Shown here: piece after piece, positions 10,589-35,760 of the stretch
Numbering within the stretch: the first letter of the stretch is position 1
How the letters are laid out: each line of letters opens with the position of its first letter
Assembly: GCA_016844925.1 (NCBI GenBank)
Contig: JAERTI010000043.1
Location: 2,386-66,385, forward strand
Source: Candidatus Uhrbacteria bacterium
GTDB taxonomy: Bacteria; Patescibacteriota; Patescibacteriia; UBA9934; GWF2-40-263
Reading direction: 5' to 3'
Length of the DNA stretch: 64,000 bases
Translations under genes and position numbers: made by a program
The notes under the pieces: model-generated
The model's database searches: none
What the model saw: the letters and a program-made list of their open reading frames with translations, nothing else
Told to the model about the DNA's origin: nothing

Positions 10589-10633
10589 TGGAAAGAAAAT
10601 CCCGAGCGAGGGCTCGGGCGTACAGTGATCTCC

Positions 10634-10915
10634 TTAAGGGCTGTTCTGTTCGTCTACCTGTTTTTCGGCAGGGAGGCCCATGATGTACATCACGGCCGTG
10701 CATGACGGCACCGAATCGATGCCAACTTTTGAGAAGGCCTGTCGGTGAGTGATGATCTTGATGATCTCCCATCCCTCAGCAAGGAGCTGGTTCAGCACCT
10801 CTTCCGTCTTCTGGCTCGCGATGATCCGAGAGGGGCTTTGGTATTCGGTTCCTGCCGGCCGCACGTTTACCCTCAGGTTGGGGCCAGGGACATGCTTCAC
10901 TTTTACGTAACTCAC
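10634..10915 (-). CDS. hypothetical small protein (terminal cassette of array 1)
   Basis: 93-aa ORF. Its 5' leader, tcacgagcctgNtagcagg, is shared with the gene at 11957..12511. Confidence 0.4.
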   Translation of the reverse strand: MSYVKVKHVPGPNLRVNVRPAGTEYQSPSRIIASQKTEEVLNQLLAEGWEIIKIITHRQAFSKVGIDSVPSCTAVMYIMGLPAEKQVDEQNSP

Positions 10916-10963
10916 GATGAGTCCGGATTCACGAGCCTGGTAGCAGGTCGTGTGTTAGTTGGT

Positions 10964-11060
10964 TCCTCCATCTGACCGTCCGTCATCGACGGCGGGTCAG
11001 ATGGAGTCCCGAGCGTTTGCTTAGACTCCGAATCGTAAATATCGAGAGTCTTGAGCGGTT
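10964..11060 (-). repeat. cassette-boundary element (core CCTCCATC-variable-GATGGAGTCCCGAG on the + strand)
   Basis: The inverted repeat ctccatctgaccg...cggGtcagatggag is followed by tcccgagc. Confidence 0.7.
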
Positions 11061-11108
11061 GGCTCGGGGATCCCGCGTTGCGGGTCAGTTTTGGAGGCTG
11101 GCTCCAGC

Positions 11109-11738
11109 CTACTTGGAGGTAGGAGTCGTCTGTGGGCGGCAGAACACCCACTGCTTATCACCCCGCGACTTGATGTCGGGGCCGAAGAAGCTTGTGCTCA
11201 GGAAGCGCCTGTCGCGACGACGGCCCACAAGGAAGACCTTCAGGTTGCTTTCAATGTCCCTGAGGGGCTCCATAGCGATGAAGCGTATTTCGTCCACTGG
11301 CTGGTCGGGGTAGGCAAGACGAAGGGCCGGGCCAACTTCCGCAGGGCACAAGTCGAGCCCCAAGGCCTTGCTGGCCTTGTAAACCTGTCTCGTGGTCGCT
11401 CCTTTAGGAAAACCTAGTTCCACTGCAGTGAGCGAGACCAGCTCGACCTGTGTCGGCTTCGAGGCGCAGGGGGTTCTCTTCAGCAGGTCATCCGCCCAGT
11501 GGCTGGTGACGAAACCAGACTGATTGAAGGCCCGACGATAGGCTCGTCGGTTCTGATGCTGGCCTAAGGTGATGGTCCGCCAGGTGAGAGGTTTCTCCCA
11601 GGGGTTTTTCTTGAGCAAGAACCGTTTAAGAGCCACGAGCCACACACGCCCGTCAGGTCCTGCCAGCTTGTTTTCCAGGTCCAGTCGAGTCTCCTGGACC
11701 TCACTGAGTTCGAGCATGCCGAGCATGCCTTGAGACAT
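11109..11738 (-). CDS. hypothetical protein, paralog family A (with 25186..25776)
   Basis: Shares RFLLKKNPWEKPLTWRT and VELVSLTAVELGF with the protein at 25186..25776. Confidence 0.45.
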   Translation of the reverse strand: MSQGMLGMLELSEVQETRLDLENKLAGPDGRVWLVALKRFLLKKNPWEKPLTWRTITLGQHQNRRAYRRAFNQSGFVTSHWADDLLKRTPCASKPTQVELVSLTAVELGFPKGATTRQVYKASKALGLDLCPAEVGPALRLAYPDQPVDEIRFIAMEPLRDIESNLKVFLVGRRRDRRFLSTSFFGPDIKSRGDKQWVFCRPQTTPTSK

Positions 11739-11785
11739 AACCGGCTCCTTTCTCCAGCGGCACCCCGCTGGTGGGGAGGGTGTTT

Positions 11786-11925
11786 GTTCCTCCACCCCTC
11801 ATCTCGACAAGGTCGAAATGACAGATGGAGTCCCGAATCGCGTATCGATTCAGGAAGCTTTCCCCACATCCGCTGCATCTATAAAGACAGATGCCCGAAC
11901 GAACATGGGGGGACAAGGATTAGGG
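11786..11925 (-). repeat. cassette-boundary element with a second hairpin (CCCGAATCG...CGATTCAGG) and a CCCACA...TGGGGG arm
   Basis: Conserved motif gatggagtcccgaatcgcgtatcgattcagga. Confidence 0.7.
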
Positions 11926-11956
11926 GAGGTCCGTATTTACCTTCAGGAAGCCTGCG

Positions 11957-12511
11957 CTAGACAGAAGCCTCCTGGGATGTCTTGGGTCTACGCCAGCGCA
12001 GCAGCTTGAGCAGCCGCTCATGCGAGATGGCACCAGTGTCCCAGGCGCGAGTGAACCAGTCACCGGCACCTTTGCCACCGAGCAAATATCCCTCAGGACA
12101 CCGCGCTGTTCCTTGTGACCACATTCCTCGAAGAGCGGTTTGGTTCTGTAGCGCCTGCAGCAGATGCGCACGTCGCTCGGGACACGAAGCGTCCCAGATC
12201 TGCAGCAGCGGCGGAAGGAAACGCTGCACTGCCAGAATGGTTCCGGAGATTCTCGCCCTTCGAAAGTTGGCCTTATGCAGGTTCGTCCCGTACAGACGCG
12301 CTTTACGCAGGTCCGCACCATAGAGGTCCGCACCGTACAGGTTCGCACCATACAGGTTCGCCTCAGACAGGTCCGCTCCGCGCAGGTCTGTTCGAGATAG
12401 GTTGAGTTGAACCCCTGGGTTTGCTTTTCGCCAGGTGGCGATGACTCGTTTGCCACCTACGGCCCGGATTTGTTCCATTAGGTTCTTCTTGTTGTACTTC
12501 GTCATGGCCAT
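11957..12511 (-). CDS. pentapeptide-repeat protein (C-terminal subtype 1)
   Basis: A(D/N)LxG repeats, N-terminal ATWRKANPGVQLNL motif, and a C-terminus ISHERLLKLLRWRRPKT that is paralogous to 30643..31386. Confidence 0.7.
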   Translation of the reverse strand: MAMTKYNKKNLMEQIRAVGGKRVIATWRKANPGVQLNLSRTDLRGADLSEANLYGANLYGADLYGADLRKARLYGTNLHKANFRRARISGTILAVQRFLPPLLQIWDASCPERRAHLLQALQNQTALRGMWSQGTARCPEGYLLGGKGAGDWFTRAWDTGAISHERLLKLLRWRRPKTSQEASV

Positions 12512-12557
12512 GGGGCCACCTCTGGTTCACGAGCCTGTTAGCAGGCCGTATGTTGCT

Positions 12558-12700
12558 GTTCCTCCATCTCTCATCTCGACCGGAGTCAAAACAAGGGATG
12601 GAGTCCCGAGCCGTATGCTCGGGCCGTTCCCTCTCAAGTGAATTAGAACTGGTCTTTGTATTACCACGATCCTAATTCCGTCCATGAGATGGGGTGTGGG
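12558..12700 (-). repeat. cassette-boundary element plus an AT-rich hairpin module (GAATCAGAACTGG...CCTGATTC)
   Basis: ctccatctctcatctcgaccggagtcaaaacaagggatggagtcccgagccgtatgctcggg. The extra module also occurs at 25930 and 33070. Confidence 0.7.
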
Positions 12701-12702
12701 AG

Positions 12703-13011
12703 TTACCTTGTGTTCTCAATCAGATACATGGCTGTAAACCAACTAGCACCCGTGAGGATCCAGATGAAGGTGAAAACCCAGCCAATCTTTTTCATGCCCT
12801 TCCAGACAAGATCTGCCACCCCCCAGAAGAGGTAGAAAGAGTTTGCTGTCACCAGTGGGAGCAGTAGTAGTGGAAGGGTCCACTGCTCAGCAACGCTTTT
12901 CTCGTTGATGAACGTGAGCTTGTGCATCTCCAGCACAAGGGTCATGAATCCGACGATGCTCAGCATCATTTGGACACTCACCCAAGCAAGTTCTTTTCGA
13001 TGACGCTTCAT
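12703..13011 (-). CDS. small membrane protein
   Basis: Multiple TM helices. The N-terminal extension in the track ORF is translated repeat sequence. Confidence 0.45.
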   Translation of the reverse strand: MKRHRKELAWVSVQMMLSIVGFMTLVLEMHKLTFINEKSVAEQWTLPLLLLPLVTANSFYLFWGVADLVWKGMKKIGWVFTFIWILTGASWFTAMYLIENTR

Positions 13012-13084
13012 CTCGTGCCTTTCTGCGGCTTGACTGACCGCACCCACCTTGGTCCAATCCAAGGTGGTTTTCTGTTGAAGATCG

Positions 13085-13232
13085 ATTCCTCCATCTCCTC
13101 TCTCGACCGGAGTCAAAACAGAGGATGGAGTCCCGAATCGCGTATTCGATTCAGGATTTCGTGCCCACAGCCGCTGTTCGTGATTCGCCTCTGACCAAGC
13201 TGGTCAATGAACGAACGGGAACGGATGTGGGG
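13085..13232 (-). repeat. cassette-boundary element (hairpin 1, CCCGAATCG hairpin 2, and the CCCACAGCCGCTGTTCG...CGAACGGGAACGGATGTGGG arm)
   Basis: Direct read. The same tripartite unit occurs at 14829-14990 and 28380-28525. Confidence 0.75.
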
Positions 13233-13854: not shown

Positions 13855-13985
13855 CTGTTCCTCCATCTCGCGCCTCGACGGCTGTCGAAACAAGGGATGG
13901 AGTCCCGAGCTGCGTGAGCGCTCTAGAGACTCCTTTGCCAGTCTTTTTCCCTGGCAGGGTCTCGAGCCGTGCTCGGGAAGTGGTC
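13855..13985 (-). repeat. cassette-boundary element with the CTCTAGAGACTCC...CTCGAGC...GCTCGGGAAGTGG extension
   Basis: Direct read. The same extension follows the elements at 25060, 30440, 33840, 34600 and 35170. Confidence 0.7.
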
Positions 13986-14552: not shown

Positions 14553-14690
14553 TTCCTCCATCTCACCGTCCGTCTTAGACGGCAGGTCAGATGGAGTCCC
14601 GAATCTGCGTTCTAGATTCAGGAATTCGTTTCCCACATGACGCTGCACCTGTAAGGACAGGTACCCAAACGTCTGTGGGTGTGTGTTTGA
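14553..14690 (-). repeat. cassette-boundary element
   Basis: ctccatctcaccgtccgtcttagacggcaggtcagatggagtcccgaatctgcgttctagattcagga. Confidence 0.7.
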
Positions 14691-14828
14691 GTTTGATGAG
14701 CCAGTTCCTGTCCATAGCCATGGACACTCCTTTCTACCGCTTTACGGGCGGCGTTCACAGGGGTTCTAGCTCCTGTGGGTGTGGGTTGTCTCCGGCGTGC
14801 CGGAGTGTGATGAACTTCTGGAGAATCA

Positions 14829-14990
14829 TTCCTCCATCTCAGAGAGCTAGTAGCTGATGGCTAAAAGCTAATCGTTCTCTAGGATAGAGTCCCGAATCGC
14901 GTATTCGATTCAGGAAGTCTCTCCCACAACCGCTGTTCGTGATTCGCCTCTGACCGAGCTGGTCAACGAACGAACGGGAACGGACGTGGG
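14829..14990 (-). repeat. cassette-boundary element; the 14690-14829 interval has no convincing ORF (possible empty cassette)
   Basis: ctccatctcagagagctagtagctgatggctaaaagc...gatagagtcccgaatcgcgtattcgattcagga followed by the CCCACA arm. Confidence 0.65.
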
Positions 14991-15837: not shown

Positions 15838-15995
15838 CCTCCATCCCAGACAGCTAGTAGCTGATAGCTAACGGCTATAGCTAATCGCTATCTAAGATGG
15901 AGTCCCCGTCCCTCGATGGATAGCGAGGGGACCGGGCAGGCCGAGCCGTAGCGCTCGGGTGTCCCTCCTCTGGGCGGATTCCCAGGGGAGGAGGT
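15838..15995 (-). repeat. cassette-boundary element plus a 3' hairpin CCTCCTCTGGGCGGATTCCCAGGGGAGGAGG
   Basis: Direct read. A homologous 3' hairpin occurs at 31567-31600. Confidence 0.7.
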
Positions 15996-16544: not shown

Positions 16545-16770
16545 CGGGGCCACTCCTCTCTGCAGCTTGACTTGCCGCATCCACCTGAGGATTCCAGTCC
16601 TCGGTGGGGTTGTGTGGAAAGATCGTTCCTCCATCTCCTCTCTCGACCGGAGTCGAAACAGGGGATGGAGTCCTGAATCGCGTATCGATTCAGGGGTTGT
16701 CTCCCACCTTCGCTGCTTCCCTTTGCCTCTGACCGAGCTGGTCAACGAGGAAGCTTGAACGAATGTGGGA
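16545..16770 (-). repeat. cassette-boundary element including the conserved 5' leader module (GCAGAGAGGA RBS and CCCCAC...GTGG hairpin)
   Basis: Direct read. Homologous leaders occur at 27490, 30370 and 33770. Confidence 0.7.
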
Positions 16771-17835: not shown

Positions 17836-17935
17836 TTCCTCCATCTCCTCTCTCGACCGGAGTCGAAATAGGGGATGGAGTCCCGAGCGCAAGCGTTCAG
17901 GACCCCGTCTTGGGTCCAAGCCGCTTGGCTCGGGT
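17836..17935 (-). repeat. cassette-boundary element
   Basis: ctccatctcctctctcgaccggagtcgaaataggggatggagtcccgagcgc...gctcggg. Confidence 0.7.
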
Positions 17936-17940
17936 TCGTT

Positions 17941-18663
17941 TCAGTCTCCCAGAGAGGGAGGTTCCAGCGAGAGCTGGTCCACGCGCCCGATGTACGGACT
18001 GTGGAACTCGGCCGCGCGGTCGAGTTGCTCGCGCCAGTACTTGTCGTCCTCGATGACCAGGCGCGTCATGAGCGTCGAGTAGATGTCCCAGAACCGGTCT
18101 TCGGTCATGCCGCGACTCGCCATGCCCGCCAGCAAGCGCAGGAGGGTGATGAAGCTCCAGTAGCCCGAGATCGTCCAGATGACGATCCAGAGGTGCGTGT
18201 TGTGCCCCAGAGGTTCATTGAGTTTGGTGAGGAGGATCATCACGGTGGTGAACCAGATGGACATCGGCAAGCTCCGCCACAGGATGAACCACTTGGTCTG
18301 TCGCTCTGCCGTCTTCTTGAAGGACGCCTGTTGACTCACGAAGGAGGGGAGTCCGTACTGAGCGGTGTCGACCATCTCACGCATGGCCGCGATAATCGGG
18401 TACTGGATTCCACGTGCGTGGTTGTCCATGAACCCGAGGATGATGCTGTAGTCCCGCCCTTTCTCGATCATCTCCTTGATCTCGGGGATGTCGAAGTGCA
18501 GGGCGAAGCCACGGGTCAGGACCAGTCCCACCCGGTAGATGAGGTGTCCCAGCGTTCCGGTGACCAGCAGGACCAGGATGACCCAGCCCAACGGCTCGGG
18601 AATGCTCGGGAGCGCCTCGAGCAGCTGCTCGTAGTAACGGTTGAAGGTATCCAAGGTGCTTCT
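17941..18663 (-). CDS. membrane protein (start uncertain; probable TTG start)
   Basis: The track ORF 17941..18873 has an N-terminus that is translated repeat sequence, so it was trimmed. 5-6 TM helices. Confidence 0.4.
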   Translation of the reverse strand, partial: RSTLDTFNRYYEQLLEALPSIPEPLGWVILVLLVTGTLGHLIYRVGLVLTRGFALHFDIPEIKEMIEKGRDYSIILGFMDNHARGIQYPIIAAMREMVDTAQYGLPSFVSQQASFKKTAERQTKWFILWRSLPMSIWFTTVMILLTKLNEPLGHNTHLWIVIWTISGYWSFITLLRLLAGMASRGMTEDRFWDIYSTLMTRLVIEDDKYWREQLDRAAEFHSPYIGRVDQLSLEPPSLGD

Positions 18664-18674
18664 CGACTTTCTCC

Positions 18675-18830
18675 AGCGAACCCCGCTGGCGGGTTTGGTT
18701 GAAGCGGTTGCTCCATCTCCCGTCTCGACCGAAGTCGAAGCGGGGGATGGAGTCCCGAACGTACAAGTGCCGGTTACTCCACCCAACGAGGTGTTGGTGG
18801 GTTCCGGTGTCGTTCGGGTCGTTGTGATCC
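18675..18830 (-). repeat. cassette-boundary element with the CGTACAAGTGCCGG...TGTTCGGG extension
   Basis: Direct read. The extension is shared with the elements at 23150 and 27640. Confidence 0.7.
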
Positions 18831-19334: not shown

Positions 19335-19525
19335 CCCTTTCTGCCGGCGATGCCGGTCTCGGGTTAGACGCGCAAGACGTCCCTTCCCGATTTTAGGCGG
19401 AGGCTCATTCCTCCATCTCCCGTCTCGACTGGGGTCGAGGTGGGGGATGGAGTCCCGAGCCGCGTATGCGTCGAGTCTCCCATACCGGTTATACCCGGTG
19501 AGTCTCGAGCGATGGCTCGGAAATG
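19335..19525 (-). repeat. cassette-boundary element
   Basis: ctccatctcccgtctcgactggggtcgaggtgggggatggagtcccgagc followed by the ccggttatacccggtgagtctcgagc extension. Confidence 0.7.
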
Positions 19526-20224: not shown

Positions 20225-20340
20225 ACCATTCCTCCATCTCCCGTCTCGACTGGGGTCGAAGCGGGGGATGGAGTCCCGAGCGCGTGTTGCTCAGGTCGTG
20301 CCCATAACCGTTGTTCTTATGGCTTATCGACCCGTTGTCG
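20225..20340 (-). repeat. cassette-boundary element
   Basis: ctccatctcccgtctcgactggggtcgaagcgggggatggagtcccgagcgc. Confidence 0.7.
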
Positions 20341-20378: not shown

Positions 20379-20634
20379 TCAGGGGTTGAGCATGCACCGG
20401 TCGAACGTCACGTTGATGAAGTGCGTCTTCTCAAAATCGACGTCGATGAGCGTGCAGTCCTCGAGCGTGCAATCGATGAACGTCTTTCCCGCCAGTTCTT
20501 TTCCTGAGAACGTGGCAAGGACGATGTGCTCATCTTCAATGGTTTCCACGTCAGCGATGCGACGATTCCATTGGACCGAGTTGTGTTGATCTACTCCTTG
20601 CGCTAGCACTTTTTCAACTATGTCAGTTAGATTC
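20379..20634 (-). CDS. small pentapeptide-repeat-like protein (low-GC cassette)
   Basis: TTG start after GAAAGGAGAG. Qnr-like FSGKELAGKTFIDCTLEDCTLIDVDF repeats. About 40% GC. Confidence 0.4.
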
Positions 20635-20669
20635 AATGTATCTCTCCTTTCAAATTGAAGGCGTTTTGT

Positions 20670-20800
20670 TGCCTCCATCTCCCGTCTCGACTGGGGTCGA
20701 AACAGGGGATGGAGTCCCGAGCGCTGAAGTAGCGTCCGAGACTCCGTCCCGATGTAGATCGGTGAGTCCCGGCATGGCGCTCGGGTTCGTTGTTGTTGTG
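20670..20800 (-). repeat. cassette-boundary element
   Basis: ctccatctcccgtctcgactggggtcgaaacaggggatggagtcccgagcgc. Confidence 0.7.
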
Positions 20801-22381
20801 CTAGGCGGCCAGCACCCTACGCGGATCGAACTTGCTGCGGTTGGGGCGCCGGGGGTTGTATCCCGGGATGGACTTGGCCCACTGGGGCCCGCGTCCGCGC
20901 TTGGTGCGCTGTCCACGCACGCGGTGCATGCCCTCGTGGCCGAGCATGCTCATCAGGTTCAGGTCGATGCCCTCCCTGGCCAGGTCCATCTCCATGTCGG
21001 TGATGGCATCCTCGTCCATGAGGGCCCAGACCTCTTCTTCCTGCAGGTCGACTTCTCCCCAGTAGGAGAGGTCTTCGCAGTCGGCGCACATGCAGAACTC
21101 GGAGTCCCAGTGGCCGTCCTCTTCCATCCAGAGCCAATCGCGGTCCAACCACGATTCGTCGTCGTACCACTGGTCGACGTCGGGGTCCCAGTCGTAGATC
21201 AGGTCCTGATCGAGCAGGTCCCTCTCTTCCTGTTCCTGGGTGTAGCGGCTCATCCAGTAGCCCTCCTCGTCCCTGTCGGGCGTAAGGAGGCTGTTGACGC
21301 GCTCACGCCAGCCGTAGTCCGGATCTTCATCCCACGACTCAGTGGTCATGAAGGAGTATCGCTCTTGGGCGATGGCAGCTGCTTCTTTGTCGTAGAAGCG
21401 ATGCCAAGGTGAGGAGAAGGTGTGTCGCGTTCCGAAGTCGGAAAACAGGACGTCTGGAACCAGTCGGATCTGGGGATTCATTTCTGCGTCGAGGATCATC
21501 TCCCAGAGCAGCTGCTCTTCGCGATGCCAGCTGAAGATCTCTTCACGCCAGCAGACCACGTTGTCACCGAGCTTTCGGATCTCTTCCCAGTACACTTCCT
21601 CGTGCACCGTCATGGCAGCATCGGTCATGCCGTGCTGGTCCGAACTGTCTCGGAGCAGAGCCCCTATCTCGTCGTTGGTGTAGCGGACCTCGGACAGGTC
21701 GTGAACGCTACCCACGGCGTCGGTGGCGAGCCGGAGCTTCTCCGTCTCGCCGACGAACGGGCTCACCTTGCACAGCACCTGACCGATGTCCTCCAGGGCC
21801 TTCCAGCCCCAGTAGTCCAGCGGCTTGCGCTGCTTGCGAGACTTTTGGTTCACTCGACGCTGCCACTGCTTGCGCGGCTTCTTTGCCGTGCGCTTCCAGC
21901 AGGCGGCTCGACGCTCTCGAGCGTTCTCTTTGGCATTCAGTTCGAAGTCCCCGTAGTAGTTGGCGTTCTGCCAAACTCGTCGGTCCGACTTGTCACCACG
22001 AATCTTCAGAGCTGCGCGGCTGTGTGCGAAGCCAGCAAGGTCGTCCTCTCCCAGTTCGGACAGGTCTCCTTGAATCATCTCCAGGGCGCGGGTGGCGGCC
22101 AGGCGCAGGGCGACGCAGAACATGTCTTCGGTCACCGGTTCGTCACCGGCGATGATGTAGCCCTCGGCCCAGTAGGCGGGGGTCCAGACCATGTCGACCA
22201 GGGTCCTGTGGTACTCGAACTCCATGCCCCAGTACTGAACCAGCCGATCAGCCAGAGCCAGGACGGTTTCGTTCTCTTCCAGCTCCTCGCTGTAGGTCTC
22301 GTACGGGTCCCGGTGCCTCATCCAGGCTCCCAGAGCCACGACGTCTATCGGGCCAAGGTTCTGAATGTACGATGTGTCCAT
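20801..22381 (-). CDS. acidic Trp/Tyr-rich protein, family C (C-terminal GRGPQWAKSIPGYNPRRPNRSKFDPRRV motif)
   Basis: 526 aa. The motif is shared with 24576, 40785 and 42683. Confidence 0.5.
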   Translation of the reverse strand: MDTSYIQNLGPIDVVALGAWMRHRDPYETYSEELEENETVLALADRLVQYWGMEFEYHRTLVDMVWTPAYWAEGYIIAGDEPVTEDMFCVALRLAATRALEMIQGDLSELGEDDLAGFAHSRAALKIRGDKSDRRVWQNANYYGDFELNAKENARERRAACWKRTAKKPRKQWQRRVNQKSRKQRKPLDYWGWKALEDIGQVLCKVSPFVGETEKLRLATDAVGSVHDLSEVRYTNDEIGALLRDSSDQHGMTDAAMTVHEEVYWEEIRKLGDNVVCWREEIFSWHREEQLLWEMILDAEMNPQIRLVPDVLFSDFGTRHTFSSPWHRFYDKEAAAIAQERYSFMTTESWDEDPDYGWRERVNSLLTPDRDEEGYWMSRYTQEQEERDLLDQDLIYDWDPDVDQWYDDESWLDRDWLWMEEDGHWDSEFCMCADCEDLSYWGEVDLQEEEVWALMDEDAITDMEMDLAREGIDLNLMSMLGHEGMHRVRGQRTKRGRGPQWAKSIPGYNPRRPNRSKFDPRRVLAA

Positions 22382-24575: not shown

Positions 24576-25055
24576 TTAGTGGGGGGCGATCGGATTGTGG
24601 CGGCGGTGCACTCTGGTTACGCGACACTCCCACTGCTTGGCGCAGTTTCGGCTTGAGCGCTTCCAGGATCGTCCGCGGCGCATGCGTCCGAGTTCCTTTT
24701 CGGCGATTTTTCCGAAGTAGCCGGGGTTGTACGAGTCCTTGCGGATTTTGTGTGCGGCCCTGGTGGGACCGTAGGACGAGAGGCTCGACTCGTCAGCGGT
24801 CTCCAACAGGTGTCGGAGAGCTTCCTTCTCCTCGATCAAGCTTTTTTCAGCTTGGTCGACGAAGTCGCTGTACACGTCGTAGCCCTCGAGAGAATCCCAG
24901 TCTTCCTCGATCCAGCTATCTTCCTCGATGTGGGAGGCGTAAAGCTCCTCCCAGAGCTCCTCGTTGTTGAAAGGTTCCTGTTCTTGTTCGAGTTTGGCCA
25001 CAAGGGCCCCCAGATTCTCCGACTGGTAGCAGTCAGAGTGTTGATTGGATGTCAC
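24576..25055 (-). CDS. acidic Trp-rich protein, family C (GPTRAAHKIRKDSYNPGYFGK)
   Basis: GTG start abutting the element. Motif homologous to the C-terminus of 20801 and 40785. Confidence 0.45.
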   Translation of the reverse strand: MTSNQHSDCYQSENLGALVAKLEQEQEPFNNEELWEELYASHIEEDSWIEEDWDSLEGYDVYSDFVDQAEKSLIEEKEALRHLLETADESSLSSYGPTRAAHKIRKDSYNPGYFGKIAEKELGRMRRGRSWKRSSRNCAKQWECRVTRVHRRHNPIAPH

Positions 25056-25180
25056 TCCATCTCTCGTCTCGACCGGAGTCGAGGTGGGGGATGGAGTCCC
25101 GAGCGCGTAAGGGCTCTAGAGACTCCTTTGCCGATTGTTATACCTCGGCGAGTCTCGAGTGATGCTCGGGAAGTGGTGTG
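25056..25180 (-). repeat. cassette-boundary element
   Basis: ctccatctctcgtctcgaccggagtcgaggtgggggatggagtcccgagcgcg followed by the ctctagagactcc extension. Confidence 0.7.
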
Positions 25181-25779: not shown

Positions 25780-26005
25780 GGCAATCTCCTTTTCTTCAGC
25801 TAATCCAGCTGACAGGTCCGGTCGCGCCGGAGCGGTTGTGGTGAACAATTGGAGAATGATTCCTCCATCTCACCGTCCGTCTTAGACGGCAGGTGAGATG
25901 GAGTCCCGAATCGCGTATTCGATTCAGGGGTTCCCGTCTCAGGTGAATCAGAACTGGTCTTTGTATTAACCACGATCCTGATTCCGTCCCTGGAGGGGCA
26001 TAAAA
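25780..26005 (-). repeat. cassette-boundary element (leader module, hairpin 1, CCCGAATCG hairpin 2, and the AT-rich GAATCAGAACTGG module)
   Basis: ggttgtggtgaacaattggagaatgattcctccatctcaccgtccgtcttagacggcaggtgagatggagtcccgaatcgcgtattcgattcagg. Confidence 0.7.
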
Positions 26006-27099: not shown

Positions 27100-27210
27100 C
27101 TCATTCCTCCATCTCCCGTCTCGACCGGAGTCGAAACAGAGGATGGAGTCCCGAGATGGATCTCGGGTCGTGTCCACCAGGTCGTTTGTGCCTGGTGGGT
27201 TTAAGAGGGG
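27100..27210 (-). repeat. cassette-boundary element
   Basis: ctccatctcccgtctcgaccggagtcgaaacagaggatggagtcccgagatggatctcggg. Confidence 0.7.
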
Positions 27211-27489: not shown

Positions 27490-27720
27490 TCGATCCTCTC
27501 TGCAGCTTGACTCACTGCATCCACCACTGAGTTCCAACTCAGGGTGAGTCTCTTGCGAAGGTTCATTCCTCCATCTTTAGCGAGAGTGCGCTAGGTCTGT
27601 GCTCCTAACGTCTCTCGCTACAGATGGAGTCCCGAACATACAAGCGCCGGCCACTCCATTCTGACGAGGTGTCAGTGGGGCCCGGTGTTGTTCGGGGTTT
27701 AGGTACTCACCTGATGTCTA
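27490..27720 (-). repeat. cassette-boundary element (leader module plus hairpin 1 variant CTCCATCTTTAGCGAGAG...CTCTCGCTACAGATGGAG)
   Basis: Direct read. The same hairpin-1 variant occurs at 30450 and 33840. Confidence 0.7.
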
Positions 27721-28329: not shown

Positions 28330-28525
28330 ACTACCTTCCCAAATCAATTGGGTTAGACAGAGCTCATCTCTGTCCCTTCCCATCTGCCTACACAAGCGGT
28401 ACTCATGTATGCAGATCGGATCCCGAATCGCGTATTCGATTCAGGAAGTCGTACCCACAGCCGCTGTTCGTGATTCGCCTCTGACCGAGTTGGTCAATGA
28501 ACGAACGGGAACGGAAGTGGGGTGG
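28330..28525 (-). repeat. cassette-boundary element (variant hairpin CCCATCTGCCTACAC...GCAGATCGGATCCCGA)
   Basis: Direct read. Paralogous to the element at 29395-29535. Confidence 0.65.
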
Positions 28526-29394: not shown

Positions 29395-29535
29395 CTCCGC
29401 CTCTTCCCATCTGCCTACACGAGAGGTCTCATGTGTGCAGATTGGATCCCGAATCGCGTAGTCGATTCAGGAAGTTCTTTCCCACAACCGCTGCATCTGT
29501 AAGGACAGACACTTAAACGGGGGTGGGGTGCGAGG
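29395..29535 (-). repeat. cassette-boundary element (variant)
   Basis: cccatctgcctacacgagaggtctcatgtgtgcagattggatcccgaatcgcgtagtcgattcagg. Confidence 0.65.
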
Positions 29536-30369: not shown

Positions 30370-30640
30370 TGTTCCTCTCTGCGGCTTGACTCACCGCGTC
30401 CACACGTGGGTTCCATCCCCGTGTGGGGTTGTTGCGAAGGTTCACTCCTCCATCTTTGACGAGAGCTCTCAGGTCTGTGCTCCTGAGATTCTCGTCACAG
30501 ATGGAGTCCCGAGCTGCGTATGCGCTCTAGAGACTCCTTGCTATCCGGTTATACCCGGCGAGTCTCGAGCTTGCCTGCCGGTAGGGAGGCGGGTGCTCGG
30601 GAATGAGCTTTAGAAAAGCTCAAGTTTTTCCGAAGGCTTG
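30370..30640 (-). repeat. cassette-boundary element (leader, hairpin 1 variant, and extensions)
   Basis: ctctgcggcttgactcaccgcgtccacacgtggg...ctccatctttgacgagagctctcaggtctgtgctcctgagattctcgtcacagatggagtcccgag. Confidence 0.7.
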
Positions 30641-31389: not shown

Positions 31390-31610
31390 GACCCTTCTCC
31401 AGTAGAGGCTGGGATAGAGAATTGCATCGAGTCATACTCGACGGTTTCAAGGTGCTAGAAAATTTGGAGGGTTACTCCATCTCACTTCCCGTCGGTGACG
31501 GTGAGTCAGATGGAGTCCCGAGCGTTGCACTGGGACCCGTGAGGTCCGAGCGTTGCGCTCAGGATCGTCCTCCCCCCGGGCGAATTCCCGAGGGGAGGGG
31601 TTCGGAGTAC
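31390..31610 (-). repeat. cassette-boundary element plus the CCTCCCCCCGGGCGAATTCCCGAGGGGAGG 3' hairpin
   Basis: ctccatctcacttcccgtcggtgacggtgagtcagatggagtcccgagcg. Confidence 0.7.
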
Positions 31611-32860
31611 TACTCCGAGAGGTGGTAGAACTGCAGCAGGTCGTGAGGCTGCATGTTCACGTCCAGCTCCTGACCGGTCTCGTACAAGGCCGGGTTCACG
31701 ACCTCTCGGAGGTACACGGCAACCTGCACCGTCTCGCCGCTGGTGTTGGGCAGCAGCTGGCAGGCGATGCGGGTGGTGTAGGAGAAGGTGTTCTCCCAGA
31801 CCATGGGGGTCAGCATCCAGAACGGGAGCGTGAGCGTGTCGCCGACGGGGGTCAGCGTTTCCACCTCCTCGAGGCCGAACATGTTGTCCGAACCCTCCTG
31901 GGTCTCGAAGACCGTGCAGTGCTCGATGAACGGCGTCGGGTCCAGGGGGAGCGGGCTGTCCAAGCTGGTGACCAGGATGGTCCACTCGAGCGTCTGCGCC
32001 GTCATGGTGCCTTCATCGCTCCAGTTCAGCGTGTCCGCCGTCAGGACCGGGTTGGGCGTTCCATTGGCGGGATCGAGGTAGTACTCCTCGTCCGCGTACC
32101 AGTCGAACAGGCCCTGGCTGGGCAGCAGGCTGTTGGAGTAGGTGTGCTGCACCGGTCCGACGTCCCAGGGCTCGATGGGCTCTTCCTCGGCTCCGATCAG
32201 CGCGGCGACCCGCGGGGGGTTGCCGTTGGTCTCGGTGACGACCGACTGGACCGAACGGCCCAGCTGGTCGAAGACGTTGGCCACCGCCGGGATCGGCAGA
32301 TCCGCCATGATGCCGACCTGCTGTTCCGGAACGGTCTCCGTGAGCTGGCAGACGATGTCGGCGTTGCGGATGCCTTCTTCGCCCACGCTCTGACCCAAGA
32401 TGGCGACCAGGTTCCCTTCGTCCGTCAAGGGCGAGGGGTCCGAGTAGTCGACGATCTGCGGCCAGCCGCGGAGCTGGCAGCTCTGGACGTACTGTCTGAT
32501 CAGCGCGCCGTCGCCGAACTCGTAGAGCTCGTCGCCGTCGGTGTCGATGCCGATGCTGATCTGGATCGTCATCAGGTTGAGCTGCTGCCCGTAGGGGCTG
32601 TGGAACGTGACCGAGCCGAGGATGACCTCCTGGTCCGGCTGGGCGAGGAACGGCTGCGCCGCGTGGAAGGCGGTGGTGAAGCCGATCTCCAGCAGCTGGT
32701 CGGAGACTTCGGGGACCTCCTCGGGCTCGTTCGCCGGCTGCTCGGTCGGCTCGTCGCAGTCCTCGTGGACGTCGACGTACACGTCGTTGTAGATGTGGGT
32801 ATCGCCGAGGGTCTCGGGCAGGCAACCGGTGAGGGTGAACAGGGAGATCACGAAGATCAA
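31610..32860 (-). CDS. putative secreted lipoprotein (lipobox LTGC)
   Basis: N-terminus MIFVISLFTLTGC followed by an acidic 400-aa domain. Confidence 0.5.
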   Translation of the reverse strand: MIFVISLFTLTGCLPETLGDTHIYNDVYVDVHEDCDEPTEQPANEPEEVPEVSDQLLEIGFTTAFHAAQPFLAQPDQEVILGSVTFHSPYGQQLNLMTIQISIGIDTDGDELYEFGDGALIRQYVQSCQLRGWPQIVDYSDPSPLTDEGNLVAILGQSVGEEGIRNADIVCQLTETVPEQQVGIMADLPIPAVANVFDQLGRSVQSVVTETNGNPPRVAALIGAEEEPIEPWDVGPVQHTYSNSLLPSQGLFDWYADEEYYLDPANGTPNPVLTADTLNWSDEGTMTAQTLEWTILVTSLDSPLPLDPTPFIEHCTVFETQEGSDNMFGLEEVETLTPVGDTLTLPFWMLTPMVWENTFSYTTRIACQLLPNTSGETVQVAVYLREVVNPALYETGQELDVNMQPHDLLQFYHLSE

Positions 32861-32884: not shown

Positions 32885-33150
32885 TCCTTTTCCAGCTAAC
32901 CCAGCTGGCGGGTGCGGCCCTCAGGCCACGGGTTCAAGATGCAACTCCATCTGACTTTCCGTCATTGCGAGCGGAGCGAAGCAATCTCTATTATCGGAGA
33001 TTGCCACGCCTGGCGTTGCCAGGCTCGCAATGACGGAAAGTCAGATGGAGTCCCGAATCGCGTATTCGATTCAGGGGGTACCCGTCTCAGGTGAATCAGA
33101 ACTGGTCTTTGTATTAACCACGATCCTGATTCCGTCCCTGGAGGGGGTAT
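32885..33150 (-). repeat. cassette-boundary element whose hairpin 1 is a 28-bp perfect stem (CTCCATCTGACTTTCCGTCATTGCGAGC ... GCTCGCAATGACGGAAAGTCAGATGGAG)
   Basis: Direct read of 32945-33050. Followed by the CCCGAATCG hairpin and the AT-rich module. Confidence 0.8.
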
Positions 33151-33769: not shown

Positions 33770-33985
33770 GGTCCTTTCTGCGGTATGACGTACCGCGTCC
33801 ACCTCTGATCTTCAGGGTGGGGTTATTACGGAGGCTGATTCCTCCATCTTTGACGAGAGTTCTCAGGTCTGTGCTCCTAAGAGTCTCGTCACAGATGGAG
33901 TCCCGAGCTGCGTATGCGCTCTAGAGACTCCTTCTATCCGGTTATACCCGGCGAGTCTCGAGCGATGCTCGGGATGTGGTGTGAT
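33770..33985 (-). repeat. cassette-boundary element
   Basis: ctccatctttgacgagagttctcaggtctgtgctcctaagagtctcgtcacagatggagtcccgagctgcg. Confidence 0.7.
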
Positions 33986-34007
33986 TAGAGCTCACTCCAG
34001 GCTGCCC

Positions 34008-34514
34008 TTAGCAGGGCTGGATCCGACTCCTGTTGTTCTTGACCCTGTTCCTGGGGTTGATCTGGTAGCCGCAGGCGATGGCGGCCAGCAGGATCGCGGG
34101 GTCGAGGCCCTTGCAGGTTTCCAGGCCCTTGCAGGTGGCCCACTCAACAGGACTCTGGTTGACCTTTGCGTCGGTGAAATCTGCGCCGGAGAAATCCGCT
34201 CCGAAGATTTCCGCATCGAGCAGATTGGCACCGCACAGGGTCGCACAAAACATATTGGTCTTATGGAGAGTTGCCGCAGTGAAGTCTGCACCGGTGGCGT
34301 CGACGCTATTCAGGGCTGCTTTGTTCAGACAGGCATCAGAGAGATTGGTACCGATCAGGTTCGCCCCCGAAAGGTCAGACTTCTCCAGGAGCGTATCGGA
34401 GACGTCCTCACCCGACAGGTTGATCTTCTTGTCAGGGTTTGCCTCCTTCCAGTTCTCCACAACGAATTGGCCATGAGATCCATGCAGGCTTTCTGCCAGT
34501 TGCTTGTCGCCCAT
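34008..34514 (-). CDS. pentapeptide-repeat protein (subtype 2)
   Basis: NWKEANPDKKINL N-terminal motif and WATCKGLETCKGL C-terminal motif. Confidence 0.65.
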   Translation of the reverse strand: MGDKQLAESLHGSHGQFVVENWKEANPDKKINLSGEDVSDTLLEKSDLSGANLIGTNLSDACLNKAALNSVDATGADFTAATLHKTNMFCATLCGANLLDAEIFGADFSGADFTDAKVNQSPVEWATCKGLETCKGLDPAILLAAIACGYQINPRNRVKNNRSRIQPC

Positions 34515-34519
34515 TTGGG

Positions 34520-34725
34520 CAACCTCCTTTTCTCCAGCTTCACCCAGCTGATGGGTCCGGCTGTTGCCGGAGGGGTTGTGGTGAACAATTGGAGGCTGAT
34601 TCCTCCATCTCCTGTCTCGACAGGTGTCGAAACAGAGGATGGAGTCCCGAGCTGCGTATTCGCTCTAGAGACTCCTTTGCCAGTCTTTTTCCCTGGCGGG
34701 GTCTCGAGCGGATGCTCGGGAAGTG
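34520..34725 (-). repeat. cassette-boundary element
   Basis: cacccagctgatgggtccgg...gaacaattggaggctgattcctccatctcctgtctcgacaggtgtcgaaacagaggatggagtcccgagctgcg. Confidence 0.7.
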
Positions 34726-34729
34726 GTGG

Positions 34730-35095
34730 CTACATGTTGAGGGCGCGCAAGACGCACTTGCTCAAGATGGCTATCGAGAAGTCGAGGTCTTGGAGATGTG
34801 TCTTGCGGAACTTGGCGTAGCGCAGCACGGTTCTTTTGATGTTGCACCCCCGCAGGTCCGCGCCTGCGAAGTTCGCGCTCGTCAAGATTGCGTTGGAGAG
34901 GTTGGCTCCCCGCAGGTCCGCGCCCGTGAAGTTGGCTCCGATCAAGATGAGTCCGCTCAGATCCACGTTCCTGAGGTCTGCGCAGGTCAAGTTGAGGTTT
35001 CGTTCTCCGTGTTCGCTCTTCCAGCAGTGGAGACCCAAGATGCGCTGAGCTCGATCTTCTCGCTTCAAGATCTCGACCAGATCCATATTTGCCAT
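34730..35095 (-). CDS. pentapeptide-repeat protein (short)
   Basis: ORF track; tandem A(D/N)LxGxxL repeats. Confidence 0.6.
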   Translation of the reverse strand: MANMDLVEILKREDRAQRILGLHCWKSEHGERNLNLTCADLRNVDLSGLILIGANFTGADLRGANLSNAILTSANFAGADLRGCNIKRTVLRYAKFRKTHLQDLDFSIAILSKCVLRALNM

Positions 35096-35099
35096 GTGA

Positions 35100-35305
35100 C
35101 TTCTCCTTTTCTCCAGCTTTACCCAGCTGACGGGTCCGGCAGCGCCGGAAGGGTTGTTGTGAACGATTGGAGAATGATTCCTCCATCTCCCGTCTCGACA
35201 GGTGTCGAAACAGAGGATGGAGTCCCGAGCTGCGTATTCGCTCTAGAGACTCCTTTGCCAGTCTTTTTCCCTGGCGGGGTCTCGAGCGGATGCTCGGGAA
35301 GTGGG
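35100..35305 (-). repeat. cassette-boundary element
   Basis: Near-duplicate of the element at 34520-34725. Confidence 0.7.
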
Positions 35306-35307
35306 GG

Positions 35308-35685
35308 CTATCGCTTGTAGCCCATTTCGATGACGGCATCCATGAAGTGCCTCGGGGAGGGGAGCCAGTCTGCCCAGTTCAATCTTCGGCAGTGTACCCA
35401 CTGGGAGAAGTTGTCGTACTTGACGTTCCTCAGGTCCGCGTCGTGGAAGTCCACTCCGTACAGGTTCGCTCCGCGCAGGTCGGCGAAGCGCAGCCGGGCG
35501 TGGCAGAGGACGGCGTCTTCGAGGTTCGCTCCGCGCAGGTCGGCCCAGCGCAGGTTCGCTCCCTCGAGGTTCATGCCGCTCAGGTCCGCGTCTCGCAGGT
35601 CGATTTGCCCGAGCGCCCTGAAGGCCAGGCTTCGTTCCCAGTCGTCCTCGATTTTGAGGATTTCGAGGATTCGTTCGATGGTCAT
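35308..35685 (-). CDS. pentapeptide-repeat protein (first cassette of array 1 in transcription order)
   Basis: ORF track; ADLRGANL repeats. Confidence 0.6.
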   Translation of the reverse strand: MTIERILEILKIEDDWERSLAFRALGQIDLRDADLSGMNLEGANLRWADLRGANLEDAVLCHARLRFADLRGANLYGVDFHDADLRNVKYDNFSQWVHCRRLNWADWLPSPRHFMDAVIEMGYKR

Positions 35686-35689
35686 GTGA

Positions 35690-35760
35690 GCAACCTCCTT
35701 TTAAACAGCTTGACCCAGCTGACGGGTCCGGCGTGGCCGGAGAGGTGATGCGGCTAGGCC
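35690..35760 (-). repeat. truncated leader module at the array 1 boundary (ACCCAGCTGACGGGTCCGG... with no following hairpin 1)
   Basis: Conserved leader sequence that diverges at about 35740 into the core terminator region. Confidence 0.5.

Follow-up and report, generated by a model that had tools for sequence, protein, structure and literature searches.

The stretch of DNA analysed here (64,000 nucleotides, the window) comes from a bacterium with a tiny genome that its RecA homologues assign to Candidatus Uhrbacteria, within the candidate phyla radiation (CPR). It carries two long runs of genes with a structured element recurring between neighbours. Are these elements recombination sites of an integron-like cassette system, or do they belong to a gene cluster that changes by other means?

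Two cassette arrays at fixed intergenic sites

Array 1 (10597-35760, minus strand) lies between recA and a small RNA/rodZ. It comprises 31 cassette units with 32 ORFs of 84-526 aa, all transcribed from the minus strand and separated by 30 element copies, in agreement with the preliminary description of about 30 such cassettes with a repeated element between 10.6 and 35.75 kb. Each interval holds one minus-strand ORF, except for one with two ORFs 9 bp apart (next to element 24) and one without a long ORF (14623-14831, beside element 7). Gaps between genes are mostly 94-332 bp. With at most one mismatch, the motif GATGGAGTCCCGAR was counted 27 times on the plus strand (11000-35229) and six times on the minus strand (39957-45176) of the window; 0.03 matches are expected by chance. 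A covariance model of the core and hairpin 1 (hp1) identified 29 full-length copies (10963-35235, all minus strand), to which one copy with a 107-nt hp1 (core 33043-33056) was added. Most element positions given below rest on the motif count plus this model.

At the tail of array 1 (10597-10620, minus strand), an hp2-like hairpin CCCGAGCCCTCGCTCGGG followed by ATTTTCTTT forms a terminator-like half-element (hairpin plus T-run, 10601-10618), and homology to the relative L001 resumes at this point. Half-elements had been proposed for both ends; none is visible at the head near 35760, where the first cassette lacks hp1. The head carries a strong sigma-70-like promoter (TTGACA-17-TATATT, 35922-35950, minus strand), the only strong one on the array strand. 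Between this promoter and the first cassette lies a structured RNA of about 135 nt with an intrinsic terminator (35775-35915, minus strand), which is conserved in relatives and belongs to no Rfam family. Inside the array, terminator-like matches on the array strand are only weak, and the one strong terminator is that of the tail.

Array 2 (39490-50800) consists of plus-strand cassettes that diverge from ftsK, in the opposite orientation to array 1. It contains about 16 elements in all. Eight canonical copies extend up to 45.2 kb (39926-45210, plus strand; cores at 39958, 40684, 41860, 42587, 43290, 43720, 44539 and 45164), followed by a variant subfamily of the same two-hairpin design (45553-50780, plus strand; near 45553, 46160, 47131, 47674, 48320, 49200, 50197 and 50750) with hp2' GCTGTG...CACAGC and hp1' CCCATCT...AGATGGG or CCTCTC...GAGAGG.

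The arrays are found at a small number of constant intergenic positions (hot spots), namely rodZ-recA and ftsK-rpoB. They are richer in GC than the core, as first described, but the difference is smaller (0.58 versus 0.52) than the reported 58-62% versus about 50%; array GC exceeded core GC by 5-12 points in 9 of the 9 genomes compared. No elements were detected in the roughly 26 kb of the window outside the two arrays, relatives examined by the covariance model had them only inside arrays, and 90 kb of array-poor Uhrbacteria loci held one copy. The elements are confined to arrays and not spread like REPs, as had been anticipated.

Two hairpins around a nearly invariant core

In the direction of transcription, the element consists of hp2 (CCYGAR...YTCGGG, 18-166 nt), an unpaired A and hp1 (CTCCATC...GATGGAG). 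Its plus-strand layout is CCTCCATC, a stem-loop, GATGGAGTCCCGAR, a second hairpin and YTCRGG, just as the preliminary description had it, and canonical attC R boxes are absent, which that description had also recognized. The 14-nt core YTCGGG-A-CTCCATC, at which adjacent cassettes meet, is almost invariant: on the left it completes hp2 of the cassette upstream, and on the right it begins hp1 of the cassette downstream. Across genomes with core genes only about 70% identical, 11-14 nt of this core are invariant. Different hp2 types combine freely with different hp1 types around it.

Compensatory changes are present in both stems. For hp1, 91.5% of cells are paired (shuffled controls 76%, slid controls 36-49%), and both sides have changed in 13 of the 18 pairs. 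The closing stem of hp2 covaries as well (CCCGAGC/GCTCGGG, CCTGAAT/ATTCGGG, CCTGAAT/ATTCAGG and others) around an interior of 18-166 nt, and whole-element folds reach z values of -5.4 to -7.8. This covariation indicates that hp1 and hp2 are both under structural selection. Since both arms of each hairpin covary, the join is placed between the hairpins. Preferential folding of the bottom strand, as in attC, was not borne out: folding favours the sense over the antisense strand (37 versus 17 copies), as does the number of G.U pairs (80 versus 44).

The copies of array 1, all on the minus strand, are numbered by ascending coordinate. Element 1 (10966-11068) shows the order hp2-core-hp1 with its core at 10999-11012; elements 2 (11790-11854) and 4 (13089-13155; sense RNA fold z = -5.4) have a short A-type hp2. 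Elements 3 (12562-12623), 5 (13861-13977) and 6 (14556-14622) are followed by element 7 (14832-14914) with the core variant TCTATC, element 8 (15839-15959), a variant with a small additional hairpin between hp2 and core, and element 9 (16629-16694), whose hp2 CCTGAAT/ATTCAGG is a compensated stem. Further copies are element 12 (19411-19521), element 14 (20673-20785; sense RNA fold z = -7.3) and elements 16 to 20 (23097-23205, 23980-24043, 24461-24568, 25055-25170 and 25863-25928). Element 21 (27107-27167) has the shortest hp2 (18 nt), element 22 (27569-27696; z = -7.8) a long hp1, and elements 23 (28376-28445; hp2 normal) and 24 (29402-29471) share the variant hp1 ATCCGATCTGC...GCAGATGGGA. Elements 25 (30448-30601), 26 (31475-31563), 28 (33842-33973), 29 (34603-34720) and 30 (35181-35298; z = -7.6) lie nearer the head. 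The entire intergenic regions around elements 29 and 30 are 94% identical over 209 nt, while the genes beside them are only 33-46% identical.

Within hp1 the anti-Shine-Dalgarno-like CUCCAUC pairs with GAUGGAGG, from which we conclude that the element probably also influences how the downstream gene is translated or how stable its mRNA is. In several copies in the relatives L129, L159 and L127, 5-9 nt separate the GGAGG of hp1 from the start codon, and this GGAGG probably serves as the ribosome-binding site.

Presence and absence of whole cassettes between strains

Between rodZ and recA, L123, L159 and L171 carry no genes, L167 about four, L166 eight, L165 ten and the strain studied here 32. 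Such a hot spot, empty, short or long in relatives and with common cassettes in constant order, does not fit the single insertion unit that had been proposed. Although RecA of L165 is 98% identical and its core DNA 91-95%, only four cassettes are common to both strains, in the same order. Elements 10 (17839-17934) and 11 (18711-18818; both minus strand) form the 3' and 5' boundaries of one common cassette, elements 13 (20232-20295) and 15 (22438-22562, long hp1) those of a common block, and element 27 (32945-33075, its 107-nt hp1 with a nested palindrome) the 5' boundary of a further common cassette. In 5 of the 5 aligned junctions, YTCGGGACTCCATC marks the limit of homology, which sets in at this sequence on the 5' side and ends right after it on the 3' side. 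Whole cassettes are present in one strain and absent from another, with joins within the 14-nt core, and the breaks fall exactly at the GATGGAG|TCCCGAG junction where they had been predicted. Because homology breaks at the YTCGGGACTCCATC core, the exchangeable unit is hp1-5'UTR-gene-hp2.

L001, with a flank 96% identical, has different terminal cassettes. Array tails vary between strains, so the outer junctions have no single fixed position. Common cassettes keep strict collinearity in the strains compared, the more distant L131 included, and none of these comparisons revealed shuffling. Strain-specific cassettes are interleaved along the array without concentration at the head. One gene family (m20801) occurs in array 1 here and at the array-2 position in L167. 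The L165 tail has a complete element followed by a terminator instead of a gene, L168 has a solitary element upstream of ftsK, and L123 contains at least three, probably four, identical tandem cassettes of 594 bp.

Tyrosine, serine, HUH and DDE recombinase domains were found neither among the ORFs scanned in the window nor among the largest ORFs of the loci of five relatives, nor in the Pfam annotation about 10 kb to each side of recA in further relatives. With no integrase or other recombinase found in these regions, site-specific recombination can only be inferred. The cassette genes themselves are mosaic; homologous recombination is therefore clearly active at the arrays.

Explanations for the arrays and their cargo

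The best explanation, to which we assign about an even chance, is that the arrays form a cassette system resembling an integron, in which an enzyme encoded elsewhere acts on a non-canonical site of two hairpins. A sequence- and structure-specific recombinase would cut and rejoin where the two hairpins meet, possibly on a folded single strand, and cassettes would thereby be excised, inserted or deleted. The site would differ from canonical attC, and its enzyme need not be IntI. Of the original attC reading, the exchangeable cassettes stand; no recombinase was found in the regions scanned, and the crossover lies between two hairpins. In support we count the 30 co-oriented elements of array 1 and about 16 of array 2 against the 0.03 expected, the structural selection on both hairpins, the free combination of hp2 and hp1 types, the variable hot spot, the different terminal cassettes of L001, the joins in the core, the confinement to arrays, the raised array GC, the m20801 family at two array positions and the elements without a following gene (L165 tail; L168, ftsK). 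Against it stand the lack of a recombinase in the regions scanned, collinear common cassettes with strain-specific ones interleaved, better sense-strand folding (as RNA function predicts), the hp1 GGAGG at ribosome-binding distance in several relatives, mosaic cassette genes and array tails that are not fixed.

Several of these points would follow from the main rival, a reading we consider possible and hold tentatively: the genes would form a long, hypervariable multigene operon, the element would be a conserved RNA module between its cistrons, and gene turnover would proceed by homologous recombination. Here the upstream message would have its 3' end guarded by hp2, and hp1 would shield the 5' end and mask the Shine-Dalgarno-like GGAGG; RNA processing or protein binding would take place at the single-stranded junction between them. 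Near-identical repeats would feed RecA-mediated recombination, unequal crossing-over or transformation without a dedicated recombinase, and gene gain and loss would be a by-product of deletion, duplication and swapping. Sense-strand folding and G.U pairs, the GGAGG spacing in L129, L159 and L127, the single head promoter and tail terminator of array 1 with only weak internal matches, the lack of a recombinase in the regions scanned and the collinearity all argue for it, as do the homogenized intergenic regions beside divergent genes (which resemble gene conversion), the L123 tandem cassettes (which resemble unequal crossing-over) and the mosaic genes. However, most start codons in the window are 26-151 nt past hp1 and are served by a ribosome-binding site of their own, which rules out masking as the general role of hp1, and end-protecting hairpins need no 11-14-nt sequence that stays invariant across genomes with core genes only about 70% identical. 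All elements have only about 14 nt in common, a short stretch for exchange by RecA, yet cassettes turn over rapidly among strains that are 91-96% identical. Complete elements without a following gene, as at the L165 tail, also speak against an RNA module, which leaves the few hot spots and the distinct array GC in every genome unexplained. That selfish REP/BIME- or MITE-like palindromic repeats invaded a pre-existing cluster and play no part in turnover is improbable. The modular palindromic design with several interchangeable hairpin modules and the additional nested palindromes of some copies (hp1 of element 27; L123 and L057 copies) would fit, but the elements always point the same way as the genes, with a single copy in each intergenic space, and are absent from core-gene intergenic spaces in the window and about 270 kb of related loci. 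Terminal inverted repeats and target duplications were not noticed on inspection by eye, and passive repeats would not put presence/absence joins in the element core. Hardly credible is an origin of the array purely from a single ancestral gene that was duplicated in tandem, along with the intergenic DNA beside it, and then diverged, the repeats being simply inherited: the paralogues described below and the identical L123 cassettes are in its favour, but about half of the cassettes are mutually dissimilar ORFan families, and close strains differ by entire unrelated cassettes. Moreover, the intergenic elements are far better conserved than the genes across genomes, so descent alone is insufficient and constraint or exchange is needed.

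How does the integron-like reading compare with known systems? As in sedentary chromosomal integrons (Vibrio VCR arrays), the units share one orientation in a long array, most consist of a single gene, and their functions are largely unknown. A structured repeat with a variable centre between conserved ends closes every unit, and the repeat copies of one lineage are homogeneous. Close strains differ in which cassettes they carry, with joins in the repeat; one strong promoter stands at the head, and base composition departs from the rest of the chromosome. In contrast to them, the Uhrbacteria arrays have no adjoining intI or attI and no RYYYAAC/GTTRRRY boxes, lie at several hot spots to either side of rodZ-ftsK, carry cargo dominated by a few paralogous families and reside in a CPR host. 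Whereas crossover in attC falls inside the R' box of one hairpin, here it would fall between two abutting hairpins, and the better-folding strand is the sense, not the bottom strand. CALINs (attC clusters without an integron integrase, as defined by IntegronFinder) likewise combine recombination-site-like repeats with no integrase nearby, but membership needs matches to the attC covariance model, whose consensus boxes are absent here. IS200/IS605-type single-strand transposons and REP/RAYT systems use HUH Y1 enzymes, and REPs are dispersed genome-wide. They share a mobile unit whose two ends carry different subterminal hairpins, a join in a short conserved sequence at the hairpin feet and strand-biased folding; here, however, no tnpA or RAYT gene was found in the regions scanned, and ordinary cargo genes are stacked head-to-tail at fixed sites instead of being dispersed. 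Acinetobacter plasmids carry dif modules with 28-bp XerC/XerD sites, and Prochlorococcus has tycheposon-derived islands with tRNA-derived att repeats. Both resemble the arrays in cargo strings between short recombination sites with the recombinase encoded elsewhere, and the islands also in fixed chromosomal hot spots, but the Uhrbacteria element has no dyad-symmetric 11-6-11 site and no tRNA-like core, and its flanking hairpins have no counterpart there. Intercistronic RNA hairpins include REP stabilizers in E. coli operons, RNase III sites in phage T7 and PPR10-type sites in chloroplasts. Like them, paired hairpins between cistrons could set stable message ends and mask a ribosome-binding site; none of these is known to mark off gene units that vary between strains, to separate all the genes of a 30-gene array or to be conserved across genera as an invariant core.

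The cassette genes had been described as lacking any obvious functional relationship to their neighbours. This needs revision: 12 of the 32 array-1 ORFs are pentapeptide-repeat paralogues (11 by Pfam family match, one of them weak, and one by BLAST), and three smaller paralogue families are present, the other half or so of the cassettes being unrelated ORFan families without detectable mutual similarity. The cassettes are drawn from a few fast-evolving families. Pentapeptide-repeat and fast-evolving ORFan cargo suggests a diversifying repertoire, which may serve interaction with a host or with phages.

The double-hairpin element and its distribution

The preliminary description had placed double-hairpin elements between the minus-strand genes from 10.6 to 35.8 kb. 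This was confirmed, with corrections, by motif counts, the ORFs and R1, a covariance model built on the core and its adjoining hairpin hp1. With no more than one mismatch allowed, the motif GATGGAGTCCCGAR has 27 copies on the plus strand (11000-35229) and six on the minus strand (39957-45176), versus 0.03 copies expected by chance. R1 recovered 29 full-length copies in array 1, and one further copy with a 107-nt hp1 brings the number of elements to 30. Three of these are variants: copies 23 and 24 carry an aberrant hp1 (ATCCRATCTGC...GCAGATGGGA) and copy 8 an additional small hairpin. From 10.6 to 35.8 kb, neighbouring copies enclose one ORF on the minus strand (84-526 aa), except for one interval with two ORFs and one with none, and the gaps from gene to gene are mostly 94-332 bp. 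Along the direction of transcription (minus strand), the upstream stop codon is followed by hairpin hp2 with the closing stem CCYGAR(C)...(G)YTCGGG, one unpaired A, hp1 with the closing stem CTCCATC...GATGGAG (usually followed by GAA), a 5'UTR and the start codon. The 5'UTR is structured, has its own ribosome-binding site and usually measures 26-151 nt, while a few copies have the start within 14 nt of hp1.

Both hairpins are under structural selection. The window and nine related loci supplied 48 distinct hp1 copies, which form a hairpin of 18-19 bp. In a 43-copy alignment, 91.5% of the cells are paired (versus 76% when shuffled and 36-49% with the partner slid), and compensatory changes on both sides were found for 13 of the 18 pairs. 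The closing stem of hp2 covaries too, as CCCGAGC/GCTCGGG (44 copies), CCTGAAT/ATTCGGG (6 copies) and also CCCGAGT/ACTCGGG, CCCGAAC/GTTCGGG or CCTGAAT/ATTCAGG; it encloses an interior of 18-166 nt (median 53). As sense RNA, the element folds into two directly abutting hairpins (z -5.4 to -7.8). Folding of hp1 is better as the sense (top) strand in 37 of 54 copies, which is a hint only, given the kinship among copies, and G.U pairs in hp1 number 80 in sense versus 44 in antisense, again among related copies. In A-type hp2, a sense-strand U.G pair corresponds to a C.A mismatch on the opposite strand, whereas one conserved C.A mismatch points against the sense-strand bias.

Some copies are more elaborate. 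An extra nested palindrome is found within hp1 at 32945-33056 (GTCATTGCGAGC...GCTCGCAATGAC) and in two relatives (L123, a metagenome locus, 11296-13200; L057, a metagenome-assembled genome, 1167 and 2458; for example TTGTCATTCTGACCCCGCC...GGCGGTGGGAAGAATC); the appearance is that of a hairpin invaded by a small palindromic element. Long-type hp2 copies (for example 34660-34720) contain GGAGTCYC in the 3' inner arm, a sequence able to pair with GAGACYCC of the inner 5' arm as well as with the core GGGACTCC (including GACTCC). Pairing of GGAGTC with the core is a possible alternative fold and would open hp1. The metagenome locus L159 has the core variant GACCCC and a matching GGGGTC; the GGAGTC motif is missing from short hp2 types.

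All R1 matches in the window lie within the two arrays, with none in the roughly 26 kb outside, and those in relatives are likewise inside arrays only. A further 90 kb from Uhrbacteria lineages without arrays yielded one copy only, located upstream of ftsK. Among unrelated genomes with a chance match to the 14-mer (733 kb), the top R1 score was 37 bits, versus 55-75 bits for most real copies. Given this confinement, the elements differ from REP-like dispersed repeats within the sequence examined, that is, 64 kb of the source genome and 8-21-kb pieces of relatives. Matches to the bare 14-mer in genome-collection contigs were mostly dismissed as chance, a real array being present only in L057, and the sole viral-contig match (L162) is a chance match within a coding region. 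Most single-match metagenome loci (L121-L161) are probably chance as well, judged from the single core match and the expected chance rate; real arrays among them are limited to L123, L127, L129, L131, L159 and L160.

Genomic setting, transcription signals and host

Array 1 is flanked by recA (9219-10247, minus) on one side and a rodZ-like gene with ftsK (36000-39482, minus) on the other. Array 2 runs on the opposite strand and begins directly after ftsK. Its eight canonical elements reach to 45.2 kb; from there to about 50.8 kb a subfamily that has diverged but keeps the two-hairpin design takes over (hp2' GCTGTG...CACAGC; hp1' CCCATCT...AGATGGG or CCTCTC...GAGAGG). The remaining window is densely filled with housekeeping genes (ychF, a methyltransferase gene, rpsF, ssb, epmA-like, efp, rpoB, rpoC, yebC, ruvC and two tRNAs). 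Array GC was 5-12 points above that of the core in 9/9 genomes compared. Another orphan-gene block of 61-64% GC, with its own terminators and without the element, occupies window positions 1-3000; high-GC accessory DNA thus extends beyond the element-bearing arrays. A 330-aa ORF at 1862-2854 is kept beside ychF in the related loci L166 and L167 (32-39% aa identity). The 531-aa ORF adjoining rpoB (51083-52678) was rejected as an array-associated enzyme, since a homologue is absent from every relative's locus.

On the strand of array 1, there is a single strong sigma-70-like promoter (TTGACA-17-TATATT; 35950-35922, minus). Within 35775-35950 (minus), this promoter drives a structured RNA of about 135 nt with an intrinsic terminator (z = -7.4). 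This head RNA belongs to no Rfam family and is conserved downstream of rodZ in L165, L166, L167 and L131 in the blocks TCTGTGCACGCCCTAATAGGCT and AGATTCGYTTTTACAGAA; it may represent either a separate small RNA gene or the leader/attenuator of the array. The sole strong terminator is at the array tail (10618-10601), and the internal elements lack T-runs. Upstream of recA, within 10290-10595 (minus), there is a conserved 65-aa ORF (MASSIKTEPISVRDFLRNF...), preceded by a threefold TGTCAGACAA / TTTGACAAATGTCTGACA repeat of operator-like appearance; the same arrangement is found in L001, L123, L131 and L165.

The top RecA homologues, with 83-93% identity, carry the names Candidatus Uhrbacteria, Parcubacteria or Patescibacteria, and the recA cluster P0011, also Uhrbacteria-like, is 90% identical to the window RecA. 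RpoB (53776-57033) comprises 1085 aa, has its nearest relatives among Firmicutes and cyanobacterial enzymes, aligns end to end with cyanobacterial RpoB and lacks the lineage-specific insertions of proteobacterial enzymes; these traits fit a CPR origin. From the affinities of RpoB and RecA, we conclude that the host is a CPR bacterium. The L057 locus (CAZIDX010000006.1) has ftsK (70% nt identity) and the element in common with the window. Its label 'uncultured Gammaproteobacteria' was not accepted, as RpoB is short and Firmicutes/cyanobacteria-like and RecA homologues are Uhrbacteria; the label probably reflects wrong taxonomy or faulty binning.

Cassette exchange between strains and cassette cargo

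The interval between rodZ and recA contains no genes in L123, L159 and L171-L173, about four in L167, eight in L166, ten in the close strain L165 and 32 in the window. L131 has about 7 kb of array in this place, and L168 and L174 have four ordinary-looking genes, purA included. Similarly, the ftsK-rpoB interval measures about 4 kb with two elements in L127 versus 14 kb in the window.

RecA of L165 is 98% identical to that of the window and core DNA 91-95%, yet the two strains have only four cassettes in common, in unchanged order: a 416-aa lipoprotein-like gene (31610-32860), a 526-aa gene (20801-22381), a 99-aa gene (20379-20678) and the gene in unit 17887-18745. About five cassettes are private to L165 and about 27 to the window. 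At the 5' edge of shared cassettes, the sequences are unrelated up to YTCGGG and then near-identical through ACTCCATC, hp1, the 5'UTR and the gene. At the 3' edge, identity runs through hp2 and ...CTCGGGACTCCATC, and divergence sets in with the first base of the next hp1. This picture comes from pairwise alignments of five junctions, all consistent, and agrees with the cassette breakpoint predicted beforehand at the hairpin junction. In hp2 as in hp1, and in the variant subfamilies too, one arm covaries with the other. It follows that neither hairpin is split by the join, which is therefore placed at G-A-C between the two. Breakpoints and covariation together define the exchangeable unit as hp1-5'UTR-gene-hp2.

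In a second close strain (L001, recA flank 96% identical), the two terminal genes are entirely different and homology returns at the terminal hairpin. Overall, variation by whole cassettes with joins at the site was observed between the window and L165, L001, L131, L166 and L167. As far as genome comparison reaches, the arrays are built of modular cassettes that are joined in the invariant core, confined to hot spots and rapidly turned over between strains. In L123 (11288-13224), at least three and probably four identical tandem cassettes follow each other with a 594-bp period (100% identity over the 300 nt compared), reflecting either recent cassette amplification or an assembly effect.

Pentapeptide repeats are the main recognizable cargo. 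Pfam matches were obtained for 11 of the 32 array-1 ORFs (one below the curated cut-off) and a BLAST paralogue raises the number to 12; array 2 adds three more. The array-1 members have an N-terminal W-x-x-x-N-P-G...L-D-L-S motif in common and are 30-50% identical to each other. Three smaller paralogue families exist in array 1. The remaining cassette ORFs have no Pfam match, the ten largest ORFans matched nothing in PADLOC or PHROGs, and a PDB sequence search with three large ORFans gave zero matches. Some cassette ORFs have signal-peptide-like or membrane segments.

The cassette proteins change far more quickly than the core does. Comparison of the window with L165 gives 49% identity for the 526-aa protein (20801-22381), and the 416-aa protein (31610-32860) is 79% identical over the first 205 aligned residues and then unalignable. 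In both proteins, blocks of 79-90% identity stand beside unalignable blocks, at a RecA identity of 98%; such mosaics suggest intragenic recombination or diversifying selection. Intergenic regions, by comparison, are up to 94% identical over 209 nt beside genes that are only 33-46% identical. The 526-aa protein (20801-20920) and a 330-aa protein of array 2 (41640-41777) have a very basic C-terminal motif in common, RGQRTKRGRGPQWAK.IPGYNPRRPNRSKFDP, which is conserved in L165; L167 has partial matches to that region. Targeting or nucleic-acid binding are possible functions of this tail.

Relation to known systems and interpretation

The arrays behave like sedentary chromosomal integrons, and the elements resemble attC sites, which are imperfect hairpins with conserved ends and a variable centre (here the hp2 closing stem with its 18-166-nt interior and the covarying hp1). 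Several features differ. Integrons have intI and attI, whereas neither is present in the sequence searched: Pfam detected no intI or other recombinase domain (Phage_integrase etc.) in about 70 window ORFs, none in the ten largest ORFs of five relatives' loci and none, in precomputed annotations of further relatives, in the recA flanks (about 10 kb per side). As the preliminary description had remarked, classical attC R boxes are not matched; 25 kb contain two RYYYAAC...GTTRRRY pairs (1.2 expected), none of them on an element and both part of one palindrome within a gene. For a CALIN, at least two matches to the attC covariance model of IntegronFinder are required away from intI, and the boxes on which that model relies are missing here. 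The integron crossover lies inside the R' box (G|TT) at the 3' end of a single hairpin, whereas breaks here fall into the 14-nt core between two hairpins. Finally, attC is used as the bottom strand, and the strand bias of the elements seems opposite, although this is a hint only as copies are related.

Other known systems were compared as well. REP/BIME sequences are dispersed, often form inverted pairs and are linked to a RAYT gene, whereas the elements in the window and its relatives are co-oriented and restricted to arrays, with no Y1 domain among the scanned ORFs. A Xer/dif site has 28 bp with two 11-bp inverted arms and a 6-8-bp spacer; on inspection, the core GCTCGGGACTCCATC and its flanks lack such dyad symmetry. 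Distribution, orientation or site symmetry contradict REP/RAYT, MITE and Xer/dif descriptions. Sequence inspection likewise ruled out a tRNA-like origin of the core and serine-recombinase-like dyads at it. IS200/IS605 elements have subterminal hairpins at their ends and short cleavage sequences, and the cassettes similarly have two different end hairpins and a conserved join; by analogy, such a logic may serve as a mechanistic lead, although tnpA (Y1 HUH) was not found in the sequence searched. Against Rfam 15, only two tRNAs reached the gathering score in the whole window, and a search of 33.8-36.05 kb with E up to 1 gave sub-threshold matches only, none on elements. In the literature searched, arrays of this kind are undescribed for CPR bacteria.

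We consider the chances about evenly balanced that a site-specific system, encoded elsewhere in the genome, acts at the hairpin junction. An invariant core of 11-14 nt, kept among genomes with about 70% identity in their core genes, implies sequence-specific recognition. The free combination of hp2 and hp1 types around this core favours the same reading, as do complete elements without a downstream gene and a long co-oriented array with a single element for each gene, which we otherwise know only from integrons. The main rival reading, which we rate as rather improbable though credible, is that the element is a conserved intercistronic RNA module whose repeats allow gene swaps by homologous recombination or unequal crossing-over. 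The sense-strand folding bias speaks for such a module, and so does a Shine-Dalgarno-like GGAGG in hp1, which in some relatives probably acts as ribosome-binding site; a general masking of the true ribosome-binding site by hp1 was rejected for the window, where start codons are mostly 26-151 nt away. The collinearity of shared cassettes, the homogenized spacers, the identical tandem cassettes in L123, the mosaic genes and the missing recombinase in the sequence searched point the same way. The RNA module and site-specific exchange are not mutually exclusive: attC sites also affect the translation of the next cassette.

We propose tentatively, with somewhat more doubt than conviction, that the arrays belong to a new, CPR-native system of cassette capture and exchange, parallel to integrons in function and distinct in mechanism. 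In such a system, a hairpin at the 5' end and another at the 3' end would delimit each cassette, and recombination would take place at the single nucleotide where two hairpins abut, inside the invariant core GGG-A-CUCC. Its enzyme would have its gene in another part of the genome and might be other than a tyrosine recombinase, and the system would keep a fast-diversifying repertoire, made up of pentapeptide-repeat proteins and orphans, at the hot spots around rodZ-ftsK.

Stockpiling and reshuffling of single-gene cassettes is, to our knowledge, well understood for integrons only, and these require IntI and attC. A second, independently built cassette system would, if true, be a case of convergent evolution, and a new pair of recombination site and enzyme would be of interest for genome engineering. 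Even if the element is an RNA module, an operon of 30 genes with the same invariant module in every intergenic space would be organised in an unusual way. CPR bacteria, with genomes of about 1 Mb, live in dependence on hosts and are considered poor in mobile elements. The arrays occupy at least 36 kb of the 64-kb window and would, if the reading holds, provide these organisms with a dedicated engine of gene-content variation, with pentapeptide-repeat proteins and fast-evolving ORFans as a candidate variable interface of Uhrbacteria with hosts or phages.
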